Below, piece after piece: positions 7,033 through 49,903 of a stretch of DNA of 57,096 bases (the first letter of the stretch is position 1; each line of letters opens with the position of its first letter). Origin of the DNA: Acutalibacteraceae bacterium (lineage in GTDB: Bacteria; Bacillota; Clostridia; Oscillospirales; Acutalibacteraceae). Location of the stretch: contig JBJEQK010000010.1 of NCBI GenBank assembly GCA_051881715.1, positions 1 to 57,096 on the forward strand. The letters are read 5' to 3'. The position numbers and the translations under genes are program-made. Under the pieces are notes generated by a model, which made no database searches, had not been told where the DNA came from, and saw nothing but the letters and a program-made list of their open reading frames with translations.

Positions 7033-7166
7033 AGCGATCTGTTTTGTCTGTTCTGCTTTTGGCCGCGGCGGTGGTTTGCATCGGCATCGGTATCTTCGAC
7101 AGCCAGCACACGACCGTTCTGACCAAAGCAATACATATTTGTCTGGAGTGTATCGGCATTGGATAG
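7029..7166 (+). CDS. 45-aa membrane peptide with C-terminal CXXC (CD1871A-family-like)
   Basis: Below the ORF-track size cutoff. MKRSVLSVLLLAAAVVCIGIGIFDSQHTTVLTKAIHICLECIGIG. Its ATG overlaps the TlpA stop (ATGA) and its end overlaps the next start. The TM helix plus ICLECIGIG tail matches my memory of the CD1871A family that accompanies 4Fe-4S membrane proteins. Confidence 0.55.
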   Translation: MKRSVLSVLLLAAAVVCIGIGIFDSQHTTVLTKAIHICLECIGIG

Positions 7167-8001
7167 CAAAAAAAGAACCTGCATTCAGGGTGTCGCCACT
7201 CTGCTGCAAAATGCCAATTTCAAAGGATTCTTTACCGGCAAAATTTTTCAGGGCGCAATCAAGAGCGTCTGCGTACCGGGGCTTAACTGCTATTCCTGTC
7301 CCGGTGCGGTGGGTTCCTGTCCCATAGGCTCCGTGCAAAATTTCCTATCTGCAAAAAAATTTCGCTTCCCCTACTATGTGGTCGGTCTGCTGATCTTTTT
7401 CGGCGTCCTCCTTGGCAGAGCTGTTTGCGGATTTCTGTGCCCGTTCGGTTTTTTGCAGGATCTGCTGCATAAAATACCGTTTCCGAAAAAGATCCATTCC
7501 TTTCGGGGCGACAGTCTTTTGCGCAAACTGAAATACGTTATTCTTTTGGTTATGGTCATTCTTCTGCCGATCTTCTGCAAACTCGTCCCCGTATTCTGCA
7601 AGTATCTGTGTCCCTCCGGCACACTGTCCGGGCTCCTTCTGTCCCTTGCCGATACACGGCTGTTCCGTGTGCTGGGCGGACAGTTCTTTTGGAAGCTCAG
7701 TATTTTATGTCTCGTTGTACTGGGCAGTGTACTGCTCTACCGCCCGTTCTGCAAGTATCTGTGTCCCTTGGGCGCCGTCTATGCCCCCTTTAACAAGATC
7801 TCCGTTTTGCAGATGCGCAAAGACGCCGACAAGTGCACGCAATGCGGCGCCTGTGCCGCCGTGTGCGAAATGTGCGTCGATCCATCCCATACGCCAAACA
7901 GTGCGGAATGCATCCGATGCGGCAAATGCGTCCATGCCTGCCCGGAAGACGCCTTGCAGTTTACCACGGTCTTTCATAAACAAGAAAATACAGAGGAGTA
8001 A
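7159..8001 (+). CDS. integral-membrane 4Fe-4S binding protein (NapH/MauN-like polyferredoxin)
   Basis: PGLNCYSCPGAVGSCPIG motif, repeated CP(F/S/L)G motifs inside TM segments, and a C-terminal ferredoxin motif CTQCGACAAVCE...CIRCGKCVHACP. Confidence 0.8.
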   Translation: MDSKKRTCIQGVATLLQNANFKGFFTGKIFQGAIKSVCVPGLNCYSCPGAVGSCPIGSVQNFLSAKKFRFPYYVVGLLIFFGVLLGRAVCGFLCPFGFLQDLLHKIPFPKKIHSFRGDSLLRKLKYVILLVMVILLPIFCKLVPVFCKYLCPSGTLSGLLLSLADTRLFRVLGGQFFWKLSILCLVVLGSVLLYRPFCKYLCPLGAVYAPFNKISVLQMRKDADKCTQCGACAAVCEMCVDPSHTPNSAECIRCGKCVHACPEDALQFTTVFHKQENTEE

Positions 8002-24193: not shown

Positions 24194-24280
24194 TGGTGCC
24201 GGTGGCGGGGGTCGAACCCGCACGGTATCGCTACCACTGGATTTTGAGTCCAGCACGTCTGCCAATTCCATCACACCGGC
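24194..24280 (-). tRNA. tRNA-Leu (anticodon CAA), type II with long variable arm, CCA encoded
   Basis: Minus strand reads GCCGGTG...CTGGA-CTCAAAA-TCCAG...GCGGGTTCGACCCCCGC-CACCGGC-A-CCA. It has a 7-bp acceptor stem, anticodon loop CUCAAAA, a TTCGA T-loop and a 15-nt variable arm. Confidence 0.9.
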
Positions 24281-25481: not shown

Positions 25482-25507
25482 AAACGGCACCCAATCAGAT
25501 GCCGTTT
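25482..25507 (-). terminator. distal copy of the duplicated oad-operon terminator hairpin (full U-tract)
   Basis: Minus strand reads AAACGGCAUCUGAUUGGGUGCCGUUU, followed by UUGC. The 9-bp stem is GAAACGGCA/UGCCGUUUC. It is a direct repeat of 25746-25771. Confidence 0.6.
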
Positions 25508-25745
25508 CAGACTGTCGATAAAGGCGCCCGAGCGCATACATGACAGTGCTAAAAAAGCCAGAAGCATCGGCAAAGACATAGGAAACACGAGCAGCGACAC
25601 GGCATCGAACCGTTTCGCTGCTCGTATGCTTGCCGCTTTTTCGGGCTCGGAGTACCCTTGTACGCCTATCGCCCGAAGAAAACGGCATCGGGCATCCTTT
25701 CTCGCCAGCCTGCCAGCTTGTCGAAAATGCTTTTTCGACAAGCTG
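25508..25745 (-). repeat. copy 1 (238 bp) of a structured terminator-associated repeat (MITE-like element or 3'-UTR ncRNA candidate)
   Basis: By eye ~85-90% identical to 39170-39406 and 34501-34704 when reverse-complemented. Sense strand starts CAGCTTGTCGAAAAAGCATTTTCGACAAGCT and ends ...TATCGACAGTCTG. Confidence 0.8.
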
Positions 25746-25771
25746 AAACGGCACCCATGCGGATGCCGTTT
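25746..25771 (-). terminator. proximal copy of the duplicated terminator hairpin, 12 nt after the oadB stop, U-tract truncated to UUU
   Basis: Minus strand reads AAACGGCAUCCGCAUGGGUGCCGUUU, followed directly by CAGC of the repeat. It differs from 25482-25507 only at three loop positions. Confidence 0.6.
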
Positions 25772-33558: not shown

Positions 33559-34464
33559 ATGAAACCTTTTCCCGATTCTACCGAACTGCTGGACAAGCTT
33601 TTATCCCATGCGGATAAAAAAAGAGACCCGGCACAATCCCCCGTTTTCGGCGTCCGAGCCGTGCAGGACGTCCCCTATCTGACGGACAACCGCAAGGTAC
33701 ATCTGACGGATATTTACTATCCGGCACAGCACAGCGGCGCCTTGCCGACCATTTTAAATATTCACGGCGGCGCTTGGATTCACGGCAGCAAGGAAAACAG
33801 CAGGTGTTACTGTATGTATCTCGCTTCCAAAGGGTTCGCCGTTGTCAATATCAACTACACCCTGGCGGAAAATAACGACCTGCGCACACAGGTCGAGGAC
33901 ATCAACTGCTGTATGCACTGGATATGCCGCCATGCAAAAAATTTCTCGCTGGATGCGCAGAGACTGTTTCTCTGCGGGGATTCCACCGGTGCGCATCTGG
34001 CACTTTTAAGCTACCTCGCCAATGGATCCGATACACTGCGCAAAATATACAAGCTGGAAAAAGCAGACGTCACCGTAAAGGCATTCGGACTGTCCTCCCC
34101 CGTGGCCGATCTGCACCTGTTCACGGACAGTATTTTGCCGAAGCGGGATCTGTGCCTGCGGCTGTTCGGTGCGCAGTACCGCAATTCGCCGTATTACTAC
34201 TGCTCCTCCATTCAGGATGTTCTGCGCGCCAGCACATCCCTTCCGCCGGTTTGGATGCTCTCCTCACAGGAGGATTTTCTCGCCAAGACATCCTTGCAGC
34301 TCGATCATCTGCTGACCCGGCGCAACGTGGAACACACCCTGCGCTACTACCCGAAGGGGAAATTCCATTCTCTTCCCCACGCTTTCAATGTGCTGTACCC
34401 CGAATATGCCGAGAGCCTTGCTGCCAACAATGAAATGCTCGATTATTTTTGCGCAAGGTTGTAA
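33559..34464 (+). CDS. alpha/beta-hydrolase, esterase/lipase (Aes/HSL-like)
   Basis: Oxyanion HGGAW motif (LNIHGGAWIHGS) and nucleophile elbow GDSTGAHL. Confidence 0.8.
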   Translation: MKPFPDSTELLDKLLSHADKKRDPAQSPVFGVRAVQDVPYLTDNRKVHLTDIYYPAQHSGALPTILNIHGGAWIHGSKENSRCYCMYLASKGFAVVNINYTLAENNDLRTQVEDINCCMHWICRHAKNFSLDAQRLFLCGDSTGAHLALLSYLANGSDTLRKIYKLEKADVTVKAFGLSSPVADLHLFTDSILPKRDLCLRLFGAQYRNSPYYYCSSIQDVLRASTSLPPVWMLSSQEDFLAKTSLQLDHLLTRRNVEHTLRYYPKGKFHSLPHAFNVLYPEYAESLAANNEMLDYFCARL

Positions 34465-34500
34465 GCGAACCCGTTTCAAAAACTGCACAGGCATAAAAAA

Positions 34501-34704
34501 CAGACTGGCGAGAAAGGACGCCCGATGCCGTTTTCTTCGGGCGATAGGCGTACAAGGGTACTCCGAGCCCGAAAAAACGGCAAGCATACAAGCAGCGGCA
34601 CGGTTCGACGCCGTGCTGCTGCTTGTGTTTCGTATGGTCTGCCAATGCTTCCGTCTATTCCCTGCACTGTCGTGTATGCGCTCGGGCGCCTTTATCGACA
34701 GTCT
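34501..34704 (+). repeat. copy 2 (204 bp, short variant) of the structured terminator-associated repeat
   Basis: Starts CAGACTGGCGAGAAAGG and ends CGACAGTCT(G). It lacks the 33-nt 5' hairpin module of copies 1 and 3, and is flanked by the 10-bp direct repeat GCATAAAAAA (34491-34500 and 34705-34714). Confidence 0.8.
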
Positions 34705-34706
34705 GC

Positions 34707-34740
34707 ATAAAAAAGGAGCTGTCCCATCGAGGCAGCTCCT
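34707..34740 (-). terminator. intrinsic terminator of the 34755-35651 lipoprotein gene
   Basis: AGGAGCTG/CAGCTCCT stem (34714-34721/34733-34740), followed on the minus strand by UUUUUUAUG. Confidence 0.55.
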
Positions 34741-34754
34741 GTAATTTTATACAT

Positions 34755-35651
34755 TTACCACTTGAAGTTGCTGAAAGTAACAGTGGTTGTGCCGGTTGCA
34801 TGGCCGGAAGAACCGTACACCTTGCTGATATCGAAGTTGATATCAAAGGTGACATCCATCTTGGTCAGGTTGCCGTTCTTGTCCACGGTTGCCTTGATGA
34901 CCGCATTGGAATAGCTCTCGTCGATCACAGCGCCGCTGGCCACATCGTCGATGGCGTCATAGACGTTCTGTGCCGTCTTGTGATCCCAATAGCCCTTGTC
35001 GTCTCTGCCGGCGCTGATGGCGCTCTTGTCCAGCGGGGCATTGAGCTTTTCATTGCTACCGCCGTTGATGGAGCTGCTGCCGCTCTTGACTTTGATCACA
35101 AGATCGAAGCCGCCGTCCGCATTCTTGGTGCAGGTCGCGTCGGTGATATCCGCTTCGGTCAGCGTGGATTTCTGGAAATAGTGGTCGTAACTACCGTCAT
35201 TCTTCGGCACATCCTTGACATAAGCGTTTTCGGCGCCGATGCCCATGAACTTGTAGACGATGCTCTTGAAGGTCTTGAGCGCCACACCGGCCTCATAGAC
35301 GCCCTCCTTGGTTTCGCGCTTTTTGGAAAAAGCGACTTTGCGGGAGGCAACCTTTTCCGTTGCGTCATTGTACAGCTTGAGAACCTCCGCCTTGTCCGCA
35401 GGTTCTTCCAGCTCCTGCGCCTCGGTGGTTTCCTCTGCGGCGGTGGTATCCTCCGCAGGCGTTTCCTCAGAGATATCCGTTTCGCTCTGCGCGGCGTCCG
35501 CTGTGGTCTCTGCCGCTTCCGTAATGGTTGCTTCGACAGCTTCCGTCGGTGCGGTGGTTTCGGGTGTCTCGGTTTTGCCGCAAGCCGCAAAGGAAGCAGT
35601 CATCAATGCCGCCAAAGCCAGTGCGATTGCACGGGTGATCTTTGCTTTCAT
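34755..35651 (-). CDS. lipoprotein, function unknown
   Basis: Start at MKAKITRAIALALAALMTASFAACG (lipobox), behind an AAGGAGAAG RBS. A Glu/Thr/Ala-rich linker precedes a ~210-aa domain I do not recognise. Confidence 0.65.
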   Translation of the reverse strand: MKAKITRAIALALAALMTASFAACGKTETPETTAPTEAVEATITEAAETTADAAQSETDISEETPAEDTTAAEETTEAQELEEPADKAEVLKLYNDATEKVASRKVAFSKKRETKEGVYEAGVALKTFKSIVYKFMGIGAENAYVKDVPKNDGSYDHYFQKSTLTEADITDATCTKNADGGFDLVIKVKSGSSSINGGSNEKLNAPLDKSAISAGRDDKGYWDHKTAQNVYDAIDDVASGAVIDESYSNAVIKATVDKNGNLTKMDVTFDINFDISKVYGSSGHATGTTTVTFSNFKW

Positions 35652-35858
35652 AATTAATCTTCTCCTTTTTATTCGATGTAAACGATTCGGGATGTTTAAA
35701 TTGTATAACATTGCGGCGAAAATGTCAATATATCGAATTCTTTACGGATTCTTTATTTTTTCCTTACCGTTTTCGGGATTTTTTATGGTTGAATACAGTC
35801 ATCGGGTTTTACTTTCACGAGCCGATATGCTATACTGTATGCAAGGGAGATGATGAAG

Positions 35859-39139: not shown

Positions 39140-39169
39140 AGGAGCTGCGCGCATGGCGTCAGCTCCTTT
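39140..39169 (+). terminator. proximal copy of the duplicated HK/HAD terminator hairpin (A-run kept, U-tract cut to UUU)
   Basis: AGGAGCTGCGCGCATGGCGTCAGCTCCTTT, 8 nt after the HK stop, identical to 39407-39436. Confidence 0.6.
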
Positions 39170-39406
39170 CAGCTTGTCGAAAAAGTATTTTCGGCAAGCT
39201 GGCAGACTGGAGAGAAAGGATGTCCGATGCCGTTTTCTTCGGGCGATAGGCGTACAAAGGTACTCCGAGCCCGAAAAAACGGCAAGCATACAAGCAGTGG
39301 CACGGTTCGACGCCGTGCCACTGCTTGTGTATCGTAGGGTCTGCCGATGCTTCCGACTTTTCCTACACTGTCGTGTATGCGCTCGGGCGCCTTTATCAAC
39401 AGTCTG
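39170..39406 (+). repeat. copy 3 (237 bp) of the structured terminator-associated repeat
   Basis: Starts CAGCTTGTCGAAAAAGTATTTTCGGCAAGCT and ends TATCAACAGTCTG. It is bracketed by a perfect 30-bp direct repeat. Confidence 0.8.
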
Positions 39407-39436
39407 AGGAGCTGCGCGCATGGCGTCAGCTCCTTT
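39407..39436. terminator. distal copy of the duplicated terminator hairpin (full T-run); contains the HAD stop codon
   Basis: AGGAGCTGCGCGCATGGCGTCAGCTCCTTT plus TTT. The stop codon of the minus-strand HAD gene (39426-39428) and its last 4 codons lie in the 3' arm and T-run. Confidence 0.6.
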
Positions 39437-40088
39437 TTTCAGTCAATATGTAGTTTTTAAGCGCCTGCACATCCTGTGCGAAACGGGAGGCTCCTGCTTT
39501 TTCCAAAGTGTCCTTGTCTCTGAACCCCCAGAGGACAGATACGGTATCTATGCCGGCGTTCAAGCCGGTCTGCACATCCGTCTCGGAATCGCCGACATAC
39601 AGAACCCTTTGCGGCTTTGTGTGCAACACCTCTGCGATGAAGTGCAGTCCCCTCGGGTCGGGCTTTTTGGGTACATCTTCGGTGGGGCCCGTGGCATAAT
39701 CCAGCCAGTCTCCGAAGTAATGCACACACAGCGGGCGGACTGCGTTGTCCTGCTTGTTGGAGAATACCGCCGTCCGAATCCCTGCCGCCCGTAGTGCTTG
39801 CAGCAGCTCGGAGACTCCCTTGTACGGCGCCGTTTTCACTCGGGAATGGGCAGTGTAGTATGCATCGTAGGTTTTATAAAACCGTGCAAATTCTTCTTCG
39901 TTCACACTCTCGGGCAGCGCACGTTCCAGAAGCTTCACCGCCCCGTTTCCCACAAAGCGCCGTATTTCATCCACCGTTCTTTCAGGATACCCGAACGAAC
40001 GCAGTGCATAGTTTACGCCGTCGGCAATATCCTGCAATGTATTGAGAAGCGTTCCGTCCAGATCAAAAATCACTGCTTCATATTTCAT
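39426..40088 (-). CDS. HAD-superfamily phosphatase (phosphoglycolate phosphatase-like)
   Basis: Motif I AVIFDLDGTLLNT, motif II SNK, and motif IV YVGDSETD. Confidence 0.85.
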   Translation of the reverse strand: MKYEAVIFDLDGTLLNTLQDIADGVNYALRSFGYPERTVDEIRRFVGNGAVKLLERALPESVNEEEFARFYKTYDAYYTAHSRVKTAPYKGVSELLQALRAAGIRTAVFSNKQDNAVRPLCVHYFGDWLDYATGPTEDVPKKPDPRGLHFIAEVLHTKPQRVLYVGDSETDVQTGLNAGIDTVSVLWGFRDKDTLEKAGASRFAQDVQALKNYILTEKRS

Positions 40089-48813: not shown

Positions 48814-48970
48814 TGTGCGGCACATCCCTTCATTTGGAAATATATTTAAGGCAACACCGCACAAATTGCGGCGCACGCCTTGCTTGAATCTTATTCCGTC
48901 AGCTTACACAAAAATCCCTTGACTTGCGTCAGCAAGTCGGCGGTCTTTCTGTGCAACCTGACGAAAAATC

Positions 48971-49903
48971 TTACTTTGCAATTCGCACACCCCAATTGTG
49001 CGGTATTGCCTTGATCTCCGGCTCGAGCAGGACGCCTGTCTGTCCCTGAACCGTTTTTTGAATATACTCGACAAGGCGCAGCACGTCCCTTGCGGATGCG
49101 CCGCCCCGGTTGACGATGAACCCGGCGTGTTTCTCGCTGACCTGTGCGCCGCCGACAGCGAAGCCTTTCAGCCCGCACTGCTCGATCAGCGCACCGGCAA
49201 AATGCCCTTGGGGACGTTTGAATGCGGAGCCTGCGCTGGGGAAATTCAACGGCTGCTTCTCTTTGCGCCTGGAAAGGATGTCGTCCATCCTTGCGCGGAT
49301 CTGTGCACTGTCTCCCTTTTGCAGGGAAATCAGGGCAGACGAAACGACCCAGCCGTTTTTTTGCAAAATGCTGGTTCTGTAGTCAAACGCCAGCTCTTTT
49401 GCAGAGAGGGTGTGCTCTTTGCCCGCTTTGTCGATGCAGATACAGGACGCCACCACATCTTTCATCTCTCCGCCGTAGGCGCCTGCGTTCATAAACACAG
49501 CGCCGCCCACGGAACCGGGGATGCCGTAGGCAAACTCCAAACCGGTCAGGGAGCTGTTCAGCGCAGCCATGCACAGCTTTACCAGCGGCAGTCCGGCTTC
49601 GCACTCGATCTGCGTGTCGGAAACCTGTTGGCACGAGAGCATTCTGTCCGTGCAGATCGTCACGCCCGCAAGACCGCTGTCTGCAATGAGCAAATTGCTG
49701 CCCTTGCCCAGTATAAACGGCTGTGTGTCCACCTGCGCACAGAACGCCAGCAACTGCCGCAGCATCTCCCGACTGCTGGGAAACAGCATCAGCTCCGCCG
49801 GTCCGCCGATGTGAAAGGTGGTGTAGGCAGACAGCGGCTCGCCCTCCTTGAAGGCACAGTGTATGGATGCGGCAAAGTCACGGAATTGTTCTGTTACAGA
49901 CAC
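48971..49903 (-). CDS. murB: UDP-N-acetylenolpyruvoylglucosamine reductase
   Basis: TTFHIGGPAEL, GKGSNLL, AYGIPGSVGGAVFMNAGAYGGE, and SAGSAFKRP. Confidence 0.9.
   Translation of the reverse strand: MSVTEQFRDFAASIHCAFKEGEPLSAYTTFHIGGPAELMLFPSSREMLRQLLAFCAQVDTQPFILGKGSNLLIADSGLAGVTICTDRMLSCQQVSDTQIECEAGLPLVKLCMAALNSSLTGLEFAYGIPGSVGGAVFMNAGAYGGEMKDVVASCICIDKAGKEHTLSAKELAFDYRTSILQKNGWVVSSALISLQKGDSAQIRARMDDILSRRKEKQPLNFPSAGSAFKRPQGHFAGALIEQCGLKGFAVGGAQVSEKHAGFIVNRGGASARDVLRLVEYIQKTVQGQTGVLLEPEIKAIPHNWGVRIAK

Follow-up and report, generated by a model that had tools for sequence, protein, structure and literature searches.

A family of mobile repeats inserted at terminator hairpins in gut Clostridia carries a conserved fold with a preferred strand

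Introduction

The DNA analysed here, a stretch of 57,096 nt that we call the window, contains three copies of a sequence of about 205 nt. Substitutions among these copies had led an earlier note to propose a conserved RNA fold and a functional RNA, or a single-stranded intermediate, in the orientation of the upstream gene. The locus raises the question of what the copies are, how they came to lie where they do, and whether their fold is conserved as RNA or as DNA.

Results

Three copies with defined ends

The copies C1, C2 and C3 showed pairwise identities of 90-93% over ~205 nt, a similarity that chance does not come near to explaining, and indels between them were visible in the alignment. 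Their extents and ends were determined as follows.

34501..34705, + strand: copy C2, short form S, 205 bp, from CAGACTGGCGAGAAAGG to CCTTTATCGACAGTCTG; the region of the finding
39170..39406, + strand: copy C3, long form, 237 bp, in which palindrome P (39170-39201) is joined through a G to S (39203-39406)
25508..25745, - strand: copy C1, long form, 238 bp, in which P (25714-25745) is joined through a G to S (25508-25712)
39170..39201, + strand: palindrome P of C3, CAGCTTGTCGAAAAAGTATTTTCGGCAAGCTG, two more terminal-repeat copies face to face
34501..34525, + strand: 5' strand of helix P1, the left terminal inverted repeat of C2, pairing with 34681-34705 in the MFE fold
34681..34705, + strand: 3' strand of helix P1, the right terminal inverted repeat of C2, from the terminal-repeat pattern search and the MFE fold

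C2 had been placed at 34501-34704, and its end should be 34705. The ends of the short form S (~205 bp) are 17-nt terminal inverted repeats, CAGACTGKCGAKAAAGG; in C2, CAGACTGGCGAGAAAGG and the reverse complement of CCTTTATCGACAGTCTG are identical at 15 of 17 positions. The long form (~237 bp) is S preceded by an extra 32-bp palindrome, P, whose right arm meets the left end of S tip to tip across a 1-nt spacer. P was present in all long copies and missing from C2 and from two copies outside the window, L001 and L023. A pattern search of the window for the terminal repeat, of the type written CAGMYTGKCGAWAAAG, gave seven matches against 0.41 expected; six lie at copy ends, and the sole extra match has three mismatches.

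Coding capacity was absent, in agreement with the earlier non-coding assignment: a single frame, of 61 codons, is open in C2, and it hits a stop in C3. A coding remnant was also rejected, as the frame is broken in this way, the apical motif described below is invariant at all codon positions, and its flanks covary as a stem. At 205-238 bp and without coding capacity, the window copies have the size and content of a MITE.

Insertion at terminator hairpins

Through flanking-gene homologues at 94-95% identity we reached the empty sites of two copies, the loci concerned being a histidine kinase/HAD locus and an esterase locus; exact-protein look-ups of the flanking genes returned only short contigs breaking inside the repeat. 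The features flanking the three copies (unstranded) are listed below.

34492..34500: left 9-bp target-site duplication of C2, CATAAAAAA; a single CATGAAAAAA is found at the empty site in L020 and L021
34706..34714: right 9-bp target-site duplication of C2, abutting the terminator hairpin
34714..34740: terminator hairpin at C2, a terminator-like site also present in the empty site of L020 and L021
39140..39169: upstream 30-bp duplication of C3, the terminator hairpin AGGAGCTGCGCGCATGGCGTCAGCTCCTTT, its stem followed by TTT only
39407..39436: downstream 30-bp duplication of C3, which with 39437-39439 keeps the full T-tract TTTTTT
25746..25771: upstream (5') 26-bp duplicated terminator hairpin of C1, AAACGGCATCCGCATGGGTGCCGTTT
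25482..25507: downstream (3') duplicated hairpin of C1, AAACGGCATCTGATTGGGTGCCGTTT, with the stems of the upstream copy and a drifted loop

At the C2 locus, the element is absent from L020 and L021, and CATAAAAAA flanks both sides in the window allele. The insertion point is an A-tract immediately 5' of the terminator hairpin, which separates the convergent genes 33559-34464 (+) and 34755-35711 (-). The empty C3 allele, found in L018 and L019, reads GTCAAAAGGAGCTGCGCACATGGCGTCAGCTCCTTTTTTCAGG and holds a single hairpin copy; the filled allele in the window reads GTCAAA, the 30-bp hairpin, the 237-bp element, the same 30 bp and TTTCAG, and its two hairpin copies are 100% identical. A BLAST comparison of L018 with the window broke exactly at 39169/39407, with a 30-nt overlap within L018. 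The C1 insertion also occupies the orthologous site in MAG SUG1305 (L025; flanks 92% identical), where the hairpin loop is intermediate, CCGAATGG. C1 is an old, shared insertion, and its two hairpin copies differ in the loop only, because they have drifted since that insertion, which it has in common with SUG1305.

Because empty sites exist in close relatives, the window copies are proven to be mobile-element insertions with terminal inverted repeats and target-site duplications. The proposal of functional RNA copies stands as regards the conserved fold and the strand bias described below, but the copies are not paralogous RNA genes. As for the orientation of the upstream gene, C1 is informative, but C2 and C3 lie between convergent genes, where either orientation fits.

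Two types of duplication were found, 9 bp beside a hairpin or the whole hairpin (20-34 bp), and most long copies sit between duplicated target hairpins of 20-34 bp. The hairpin-covering duplications measured 26 bp at C1, 30 bp at C3, 25 bp at L008, 29 bp at L014, ~30 bp at L011a and ~34 bp at the L004/L005 pair; these hairpin sequences are unrelated from site to site, and no short sequence common to all flanks was found. Since the duplications either cover or adjoin the hairpin, the joins fall at the two feet of the dyad. After the stem, upstream hairpin copies retain one to three T and downstream copies three to six. Insertion thus takes place at or beside intrinsic terminators, and the variable duplications spanning or adjoining dyad symmetry are the behaviour of YPAL and IS1630.

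No recognisable duplication was present at the two short copies L001 and L023, L024 has two different flanking hairpins, and in the distant families introduced below the hairpin duplication was not recognisable. The missing duplications at L001, L023 and the distant families, the mismatched hairpins of L024, and the occurrence of both 9-bp and 20-34-bp duplications, which is unusual for a single transposase, speak against a MITE.

Elements of the IS200/IS605 type lack inverted-repeat ends and target duplications and insert 3' of a fixed tetra- or pentanucleotide. This type was rejected, since inverted-repeat ends and duplications are present here and the flanks share no short sequence.

A conserved fold with a preferred strand

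The sense strand of C2 folded at -109.3 kcal/mol (z = -9.4), and none of 200 shuffles was as good; the z-score of the antisense strand was also strong, at -7.35. The parts of the fold inside the terminal helix P1 are the following.

34526..34582, + strand: P2 (long helix GCCGUUUUCUUCGGGC / GCCCGAAAAAACGGC) and apical domain; three pairs changed on both sides within the family
34542..34567, + strand: 26-nt motif CGATAGGCGTACAAGGGTACTCCGAG, with an internal loop (GAUA facing GA) and a mini-hairpin of 7 bp, GGCGUAC-N4-GUAC.CC
34584..34589, + strand: 5' strand of P3, GCAUAC, which can pair with GUAUGC at 34674-34679 (tentative)
34586..34628, + strand: hairpin 2, containing the 15-bp hairpin 34589-34625; up to 19 bp in C2, with nine of 16 pairs changed on both sides

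Twelve copies, from the window and from related MAGs, were aligned, and 12 of the 63 pairs were changed on both sides. Shuffled alignments gave 4.1 ± 1.3 such pairs, with none of 500 reaching 12, and slid controls gave 1-4, so that the conserved, covarying fold first read from three copies was recovered on this larger set. Nine of the 12 pairs lie in the 15-bp hairpin region and three in the long helix. The details read from the three copies were reproduced: the 15-bp hairpin occurs in each (34589-34625, 39291-39327 and 25624-25588) with the sequences as quoted, C1 has G-C at pair 2, where the other two copies have A-U, and A-U at pair 10, where these have G-C; U-A replaces C-G at pair 8 in C3 alone, and pair 9 is a G-U wobble in C2. 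C1 additionally has an A.G mismatch at pair 11. The two further wobbles assigned to C1, U-G in the long helix (from AAAAAGCGGC) and G-U in the closing helix (from CAGGCUG), were also found. The pairing of the closing helix, P1, exists, but its strands are the terminal inverted repeats and show zero compensatory changes within the family of the window copies (family A).

The P3 hexamers are kept in nearly all family A copies, four of which carry one substitution in one hexamer. P3 appeared in the MFE fold of L024 and not in that of C2; tentatively, hairpin 2 and the variable region would lie inside it. Hairpin 2 is followed by a U-rich tail (UGUGUUUCGUAU) and looks like a terminator in the sense orientation, and a terminator-like hairpin with a U-rich tail was found in this orientation in most families. 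A K-turn reading of the GAUA/GA internal loop was dropped, as the polarity of the bulge is wrong.

The sense fold was more stable than the antisense fold by 6-17 kcal/mol in 15 of 16 elements, drawn from six families. The robust helices contained ~11 G.T pair types versus ~2 A.C types, and position G29 of the mini-hairpin pairs with U in six of the 11 core-alignment sequences. The fold is therefore strand-specific, as had been claimed, although part of the excess of G.T could stem from C-to-T mutation biased to one strand and passed on by source copies, and not from selection. The GC skew has one sign over the whole window, yet C1 is inverted relative to C2 and C3, so that the strand asymmetry tracks the orientation of the element and not the direction of replication. 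Neither the three window copies nor the DNA next to them showed a promoter-like (sigma-70-like) site.

Distribution and the shared apical motif

Further copies were found at at least 13 loci in two Oscillospiraceae MAGs, many of them at contig ends: at least 11 loci in SUG1305 and two copies in SUG1318, compared with three copies in the 57 kb of the window. Copies are thus dispersed in all three sequences, as those of a MITE are. MAGs are the source of most extra copies; in such assemblies repeats lead to chimeric joins, and L005 and L010 look recombinant. The family is one of pig- or animal-gut Oscillospiraceae, gut Clostridia.

It belongs to a wider superfamily in which the architecture is the same and the 26-nt motif at the apex, CGAUAGGCGUAYANNRRUACNNCGAG, hardly varies. 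The ends differ between families (CAGACTG.., GGGGC.., GCTGACGG..), and the P2 arms have an entirely different sequence with complementarity kept: six of seven inner pairs are changed on both sides, and the cross-family covariation score of P2 was 0.416 versus 0.162 in shuffles, with none of 500 shuffles reaching it. The motif is near-invariant across the matched copies, the deviations being GAC for GAT in one L011 copy and AGAG for CGAG in L008; in the divergent copy L012:62-131 the internal loop differs. The P1/P2/P3 architecture was present in the MFE folds of five more families. That families with different ends share one internal motif also speaks against a MITE, as a shared interior would be unexpected if it were a mere remnant of one insertion sequence.

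Scans with the 22-mer motif gave zero matches in the JGI metagenomes (first scan) and IMG/VR. A relaxed motif scan gave nine loci, including a chance match inside a coding gene (L028), and the open frame of the element, used as a protein query, reached just three more.

Searches for known families and an autonomous partner

With Rfam 15 at gathering thresholds, the sole hit in the whole window was a tRNA. Permissive searches gave only noise, both around C2 (E up to 10; best 17.5 bits versus a threshold of 78) and at seven related loci of distant families (E up to 1). The strand-specific folded core is absent from Rfam, in line with the earlier note, which had matched it to none of the Rfam families. 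Known RNA families, ribozymes, group II introns and HEARO/omega-RNA were rejected, all falling below the Rfam thresholds. BLAST of plasmid and phage collections with the element and its right end gave nothing or noise.

No transposase domain was found by Pfam in the ~35 window ORFs tested, and no transposase or autonomous element with matching ends was found in the window, the fetched related loci or IMG/VR, a result that likewise counts against a MITE. The fetched related loci held one terminal-repeat match, a stray, and two IMG/VR scans for an autonomous partner gave one chance hit, in a coding region.

Discussion

A probable transposon with a putative structured transcript

On balance, we consider that the family is probably a non-autonomous transposon (MITE) that inserts at dyad symmetry in the manner of YPAL, EFAR or IS1630, with structural selection acting on its read-through transcript. 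A DDE transposase with its gene elsewhere would bind the terminal repeats and mobilise the element. The target would be captured by its structure, as an extruded hairpin or cruciform, and the hairpin would be duplicated by subsequent gap repair. The upstream hairpin copy would then be severed from most of its own T-tract, so that the transcript of the upstream gene would read into the element; the short T-tracts upstream (1-3 T) and the lack of a promoter-like site at the window copies are compatible with such read-through. It is in this sense that we infer an element RNA. The transcript would end either at hairpin 2, which resembles a terminator, or at the downstream copy of the target hairpin, which is intact, and could adopt a compact three-way fold, with P1 formed from the two ends, the motif-capped P2, and P3 around the variable hairpins. 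Lineages keeping this fold in the sense transcript may persist and spread, which would yield compensatory changes and an excess of G-U over A-C. The invariant P2 cap (CGAUAGGCGUACAAGGGUACUCCGAG on a stem) is most likely a putative protein-binding site on the sense RNA, recognised by a host factor or by the transposase.

Alternative readings

The order of cause might be reversed, the three-way fold being a functional non-coding RNA needed for the spread of the element and the inverted repeats being its basal stem P1. Such an RNA could be copied back into DNA (SINE-like, target-primed), or could act as cofactor or guide of a recombinase. Motif and architecture are retained across families with wholly different ends, between which P1 covaries, and the strong bias to the sense strand, the sense-oriented internal terminator of most families and a duplication length that varies as in target-primed retroelements would all suit this reading, as would the failure to find a matching transposase. 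However, neither a reverse transcriptase nor another candidate enzyme was seen, and the element lacks both a promoter and a 3' tail. P1 is conserved without compensation in family A, as for a DNA end recognised by a protein; P consists of terminal-repeat copies only, and its tip-to-tip junction is typical of DNA transposons. The known DNA elements YPAL and IS1630, moreover, already duplicate their targets in the same manner. We regard an RNA-first origin as unlikely.

An opposite reading, to which we give equally little credence, needs DNA only. The hairpins would act as cruciforms or transposase-binding hairpins, or their symmetry would be kept by repair inside the palindrome, and the G-U pairs would be mutational noise. 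On paper, every MITE with inverted repeats yields a good fold, and the antisense strand scores strongly as well (z = -7.35); no promoter was found at the window copies, and between convergent genes the two strands would be read through alike. Yet what double-stranded DNA requires is symmetric, whereas the sense strand is favoured in all but one of the elements by the margin given above, G.T types exceed A.C types, G29 pairs with U in the majority of core sequences, and the bias follows the orientation of the element rather than the replication strand.

It is also doubtful, though conceivable, that the fold and the P2 cap represent an undescribed class of structured RNA across gut Clostridia repeat families that is itself required for mobility; this RNA could then serve a SINE-like retroelement of bacteria as template or a hairpin-reading recombinase as cofactor, and the repeats would differ from the usual MITEs moved by a transposase.

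Template switching without a transposase, in which a stalled polymerase would jump from the terminator hairpin to the foot of P1, copy the element and return upstream of the target hairpin, so that the hairpin is copied twice, is the least probable of these readings: it would account for duplications that match a stall-prone hairpin and vary with its length, for element boundaries at the foot of a ~25-bp stem, for the like behaviour of families with unrelated ends and for the transposase not found, but it leaves unexplained the exact 9-bp duplication beside the C2 hairpin, the fact that the terminal 17 nt are strictly conserved among family members and the existence of P, microhomology between target and element ends is not evident at C3, and the mechanism is undocumented for dispersed repeats with precise ends.

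Implications

Repeats of this type break metagenome assemblies and go unannotated. A family model lets the copies be masked and also serve as strain markers, because two of the three window insertions are polymorphic among relatives that are 93-95% identical. The copies form a natural series of insertions in which the duplication is the target hairpin, which favours the idea of transposition machineries that read DNA shape at terminators. Each insertion would rebuild the 3' end of a gene as a weakened hairpin, a structured RNA and an intact hairpin, and for dozens of genes of abundant gut anaerobes the insertions could change how transcripts terminate and how stable the mRNA is. The 26-nt motif, carried on a covarying stem, common to families with different ends and outside Rfam, is a candidate protein-binding RNA module.

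Relation to known elements

One of the closest descriptions is that of YPAL/RU-2 of Yersinia, which duplicates 3-26 bp at targets spanning or adjoining dyad symmetry and shares transcripts with upstream genes (De Gregorio et al. 2006, via PMC2229807). YPAL is also non-coding, roughly 170-200 bp long, not A+T-rich and present in many copies, with filled and empty sites among close relatives, a location downstream of genes and robust stem-loops. The likeness is one of description; YPAL is gammaproteobacterial and the present element clostridial. The inverted repeats of YPAL are internal, whereas ours are terminal, and neither a cross-family conserved motif nor a P module is described for YPAL.

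IS1630 and ISMhom-1 are IS30-family elements of Mycoplasma. For IS1630, duplications of 19-26 bp are given (PMC2853133, PMC3317919, PMC7648426), and PMC3317919 also gives 16-26 bp. These elements are autonomous, 1.3-1.4 kb long and transposase-encoding, whereas the element described here has no ORF; no IS30-type gene was found, and the likeness is one of description. Both reportedly target inverted repeats derived from rho-independent terminators. IS30-type elements use abutted end-to-end junctions, which the junction between the right arm of P and the left end of S resembles. The usual IS30 duplication is 2-3 bp, which the 9-bp duplication of C2 does not fit.

EFAR, ERIC, Correia/NEMIS, bcr1 and RUP are palindromic insertion sequences of small size, found in Firmicutes and in other bacteria, that lie beside stop codons, and EFAR and other structured MITEs are transcribed with their neighbours and act through RNA stem-loops (PMC3733652, PMC2229807). 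ERIC, Correia/NEMIS, bcr1 and RUP duplicate TA or a few bp, unlike the present element, and none of the five is reported to have a long invariant motif in its interior that is common to families whose ends differ. EFAR are said to integrate at unrelated stem-loop sequences and mostly to replace the target stem-loop, duplication not being the rule. Group IIC introns reportedly home to sites directly past terminator hairpins, oriented with transcription; they are much larger ribozymes without target duplication, in contrast to the present element, which has duplications and inverted-repeat ends and gave no Rfam intron hit.

Copies of the element and their termini

The region under study (C2) represents one copy of a MITE-like element that targets terminators and whose predicted sense-strand fold is under selection. 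It is non-coding, as the earlier note had argued, and belongs to a set of three copies in the window that are 90-93% identical across their common 205 nt.

34501-34705, plus strand: element copy C2
39170-39406, plus strand: element copy C3
25508-25745, minus strand: element copy C1

The 205-nt core S, which alone makes up the short form, starts with CAGACTGGCGAGAAAGG and ends with CCTTTATCGACAGTCTG. These ends are 17-nt terminal inverted repeats matching at 15 of 17 positions, and the terminal-repeat pattern has seven matches in the window versus 0.41 expected by chance, six of them at the ends of C1, C2 and C3. In C1 and C3, the long form, S is preceded by an additional 32-bp palindrome P (CAGCTTGTCGAAAAAG.ATTTTCG.CAAGCTG), which consists of two further copies of the S terminal repeat. 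Two terminal repeats meet tip to tip here, the right arm of P being separated from the left end of S by a single G.

39188-39219: tip-to-tip repeat junction in C3
25696-25727, minus strand: tip-to-tip repeat junction in C1

This arrangement is similar to the abutted ends in circles and dimers of IS30, IS21 or IS3. P also contains two inverted heptamers matching or near TGTCGAA (window 39175-39196 and 25719-25740), the consensus "0A box" bound by Spo0A in spore-forming Firmicutes; the match may be coincidence. The direct repeats that flank these two copies measure 30 bp at C3, where they are perfect, and 26 bp at C1; each is a terminator hairpin, and the hairpins duplicated at the two sites differ in sequence.

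Empty and filled insertion sites

Orthologous C2 and C3 loci in relatives were reached through homologues of the flanking proteins. The C3 locus was found on one Logan and one ENA contig (HAD protein P0001, 94% identical). At its empty site, the HAD and histidine-kinase genes are 26 nt apart with a single hairpin copy, GTCAAAAGGAGCTGCGCACATGGCGTCAGCTCCTTTTTTCAGG; in a BLAST comparison of the empty-site contig with the window, the alignment breaks at 39407 and restarts at 39169, with 30 contig nucleotides used twice. The C2 locus was found on two Logan contigs (esterase P0121, 95% identical), both of which carry the empty site CACAGGCATGAAAAAAGGAGCTGTCCC, versus CACAGG[CATAAAAAA]-S-[CATAAAAAA]GGAGCTGTCCC in the window. 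The short and long forms are therefore both insertions, polymorphic among relatives: the long form inserted with duplication of the entire hairpin (C3), and the short form with a 9-bp duplication directly beside the hairpin (C2).

C1 is an older insertion than C2 and C3. The Oscillospiraceae MAG SUG1305, which matches the window at 92% identity over 8 kb, shares it, and the hairpin copies available at this locus, three in all, vary in the loops only. A third C2-site allele was seen in a relative without C3 (L018 11083-11142, corresponding to about window 34700-34760); left of the shared hairpin it matches neither the filled nor the empty version, and the contig stops there. The ENA record of locus L019 is named XIAO16-1_SAMEA3663126_METAG, and this name alone points to a catalogue of pig-gut metagenomes as the source of the close relatives.

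Copies beyond the window

A search with an exact core 22-mer retrieved 15 loci, many at contig ends, in three MAGs (two Oscillospiraceae and one Eubacteriales), and full and partial copies were delimited with nhmmer. The long copies at L008, L011, L014 and in the L004/L005 pair lie between duplicated hairpins (25-34 bp) whose sequences are unrelated between sites, and differences between the two hairpin copies at one site are located in loops or are wobble-compatible. The upstream copy has just 1-3 T left before the element; the downstream copy keeps its T-tract. The short forms L001 and L023 have no recognisable duplication, L007 retains part of P, L024 has two unlike flanking hairpins, and L005 and L010 look recombinant or chimeric. 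The 231-nt copy at L010 1179-1444 joins two subfamilies at a 9-nt internal repeat (CCGATGCTT) and reflects either genuine recombination or chimeric assembly. L005 also carries a stray terminal-repeat-like CAGACTGTCGAAAAAG, ending 54 nt upstream of the start of P. Several elements in SUG1305 have beside them a short repeat of another, unrelated family, which carries a hairpin of its own (..CAAGCCTTTTCAAAGGCTTG..).

L005 1924-1999; L009 5782-5855 and 6060-6132; L001 1054-1192; L013 207-288; L007 6048-6116: second short repeat family

Predicted fold and covariation

The C2 sense-strand RNA is predicted to fold at -109.3 kcal/mol (z = -9.4) and the opposite strand at -98.8 kcal/mol (z = -7.35). 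The earlier note had read a conserved RNA from the three window copies. All the substitutions that it listed are present, including three double compensatory changes in a 15-bp hairpin, a G-U at pair 9 of that hairpin in C2, and two wobbles in C1 (U-G in the long helix, G-U in the closing helix); its list lacks the A.G mismatch that C1 has at pair 11 of the hairpin. The conserved fold holds on an alignment of 12 copies. Limiting the pair counts to four robust helices of the C2 fold, we found 96.6% of cells paired and 12 pairs changed on both sides, versus 4.1 ± 1.3 after shuffling (0 of 500 shuffles reached 12); slid controls gave 1-4. Of the 12 pairs, nine lie in hairpin 2, which contains the 15-bp hairpin, and three in the long helix P2. 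The terminal helix P1, formed by the inverted repeats, has zero both-side-changed pairs in the 12 copies, as expected if a protein reads its sequence. The robust helices contain about 11 G.T pair types versus about 2 A.C types.

The observation was confirmed, and its interpretation is supported in part. The note had placed the RNA, or a single-stranded intermediate, in the orientation of the upstream gene; because the copies mostly sit between convergent genes, this argument is informative for C1 only.

A wider superfamily with a shared core

In the divergent copies L023 and L024, the mini-hairpin (GGCGUAC..GUACUCC to GGCGUAU..AUACGUC) and the top of P2 (GGGC/GCCC to GGAC/GUCC) covary too. The relaxed pattern CGATAGGCGTAYANNRRTACNNCGAG matched nine metagenome loci, one of which (L028) was rejected as a chance match inside a coding gene with unpaired flanks. 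The eight remaining loci and the Eubacteriales MAG copies (family B) represent several more families, which have a common plan and whose ends (GGGGC.., GCTGACGG.. and others) are unrelated. P1 is built from the two ends and is followed by a purine-rich joiner; the P2 arms are wholly different in sequence yet complementary, with a nearly invariant cap; and P3, in which an A-rich strand is paired to a U-rich one close to the 3' end, encloses variable hairpins, one of them sense-oriented and terminator-like.

In an 11-sequence core alignment, 6 of 7 inner P2 pairs show both-side changes, and the covariation score is 0.416 versus 0.162 shuffled (reached by 0 of 500 shuffles). A covariance model from this alignment recovered all copies and one extra divergent copy with a compensated mini-hairpin (GCCGUAC..GUACGGC) and a different internal loop. 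Of the 16 full elements, 15 fold more stably as sense than as antisense, by 6-17 kcal/mol. GC skew has a single sign throughout the window, and C1 points the opposite way to C2 and C3; the strand bias therefore tracks the element and not the replication strand. Rfam gave zero matches for any family (window, C2 region and related loci).

L034 2800-3134 (minus strand) contains two tandem 161-nt units of a distant family, both with a terminator at the end, and after them part of a third unit; the array is convergent with rpsT and near ffh and rpsP. In the Eubacteriales MAG family, a variant has its conserved motif interrupted by about 87 inserted nt, directly after GGTACGTC.

L002 1886-1958; L003 2867-2939; L006 5209-5281: variant with the ~87-nt insertion, all three at contig ends

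Proposed mechanism

The duplications equal or abut terminator hairpins. We propose that a transposase supplied in trans would recognise the element ends and join one to each foot of an extruded hairpin, which repair would then duplicate. The upstream hairpin would be deprived of its U-tract, and transcripts of the upstream gene would therefore acquire the element as a 3' extension, with read-through terminated at hairpin 2 or at the intact downstream hairpin. Lineages with a compactly folding sense RNA would persist, and our best guess is that the invariant P2 cap is a protein-binding site on the RNA. The main gap of this transposon model is that no transposase was found by Pfam among about 35 window ORFs, and no autonomous relative in the window, the fetched loci or IMG/VR scans. 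That the RNA itself drives the mobility is a minority reading; we favour transposition in trans.

Other features of the window

24197-24280, minus strand: tRNA gene (Rfam, 51.4 bits; 84 nt)
7594-7620 and 7747-7773: 27-nt direct repeat, 93% identical, starts 153 nt apart

The tRNA is probably of the long-variable-arm type because of its length; the LRR-protein gene next after C1 is about 400 nt upstream of it. The direct repeat lies within a 4Fe-4S ferredoxin-domain gene (7159-8001) and is probably an internal domain duplication. A 166-nt stretch (48847-49012) takes in the start of a rapZ-like gene together with the spacer before it. Its counterpart in SUG1305 (L015 6849-7014) is 92.8% identical and has flanks that are unalignable to the window; the stretch reflects a local rearrangement or else a conserved regulatory segment.

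Comparison with known elements

In Yersinia, YPAL/RU-2 generates 3-26 bp duplications at targets spanning or adjoining dyad symmetry; it is transcribed together with upstream genes (PMC2229807). Duplications of 19-26 bp are generated by IS1630, an IS30-family element (PMC2853133, PMC3317919, PMC7648426), and EFAR and other structured MITEs lie at gene ends and act via RNA stem-loops (PMC3733652). Variable dyad-spanning duplications are common to the present element, YPAL/RU-2 and IS1630, and since they are already documented, its insertion behaviour is of a known kind. What is new is the element family itself, which occurs in Oscillospiraceae, and the P module, with its terminal repeats abutting tip to tip. 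The chief novelty is a deeply conserved structured core, not in Rfam, that is common to families with different ends.
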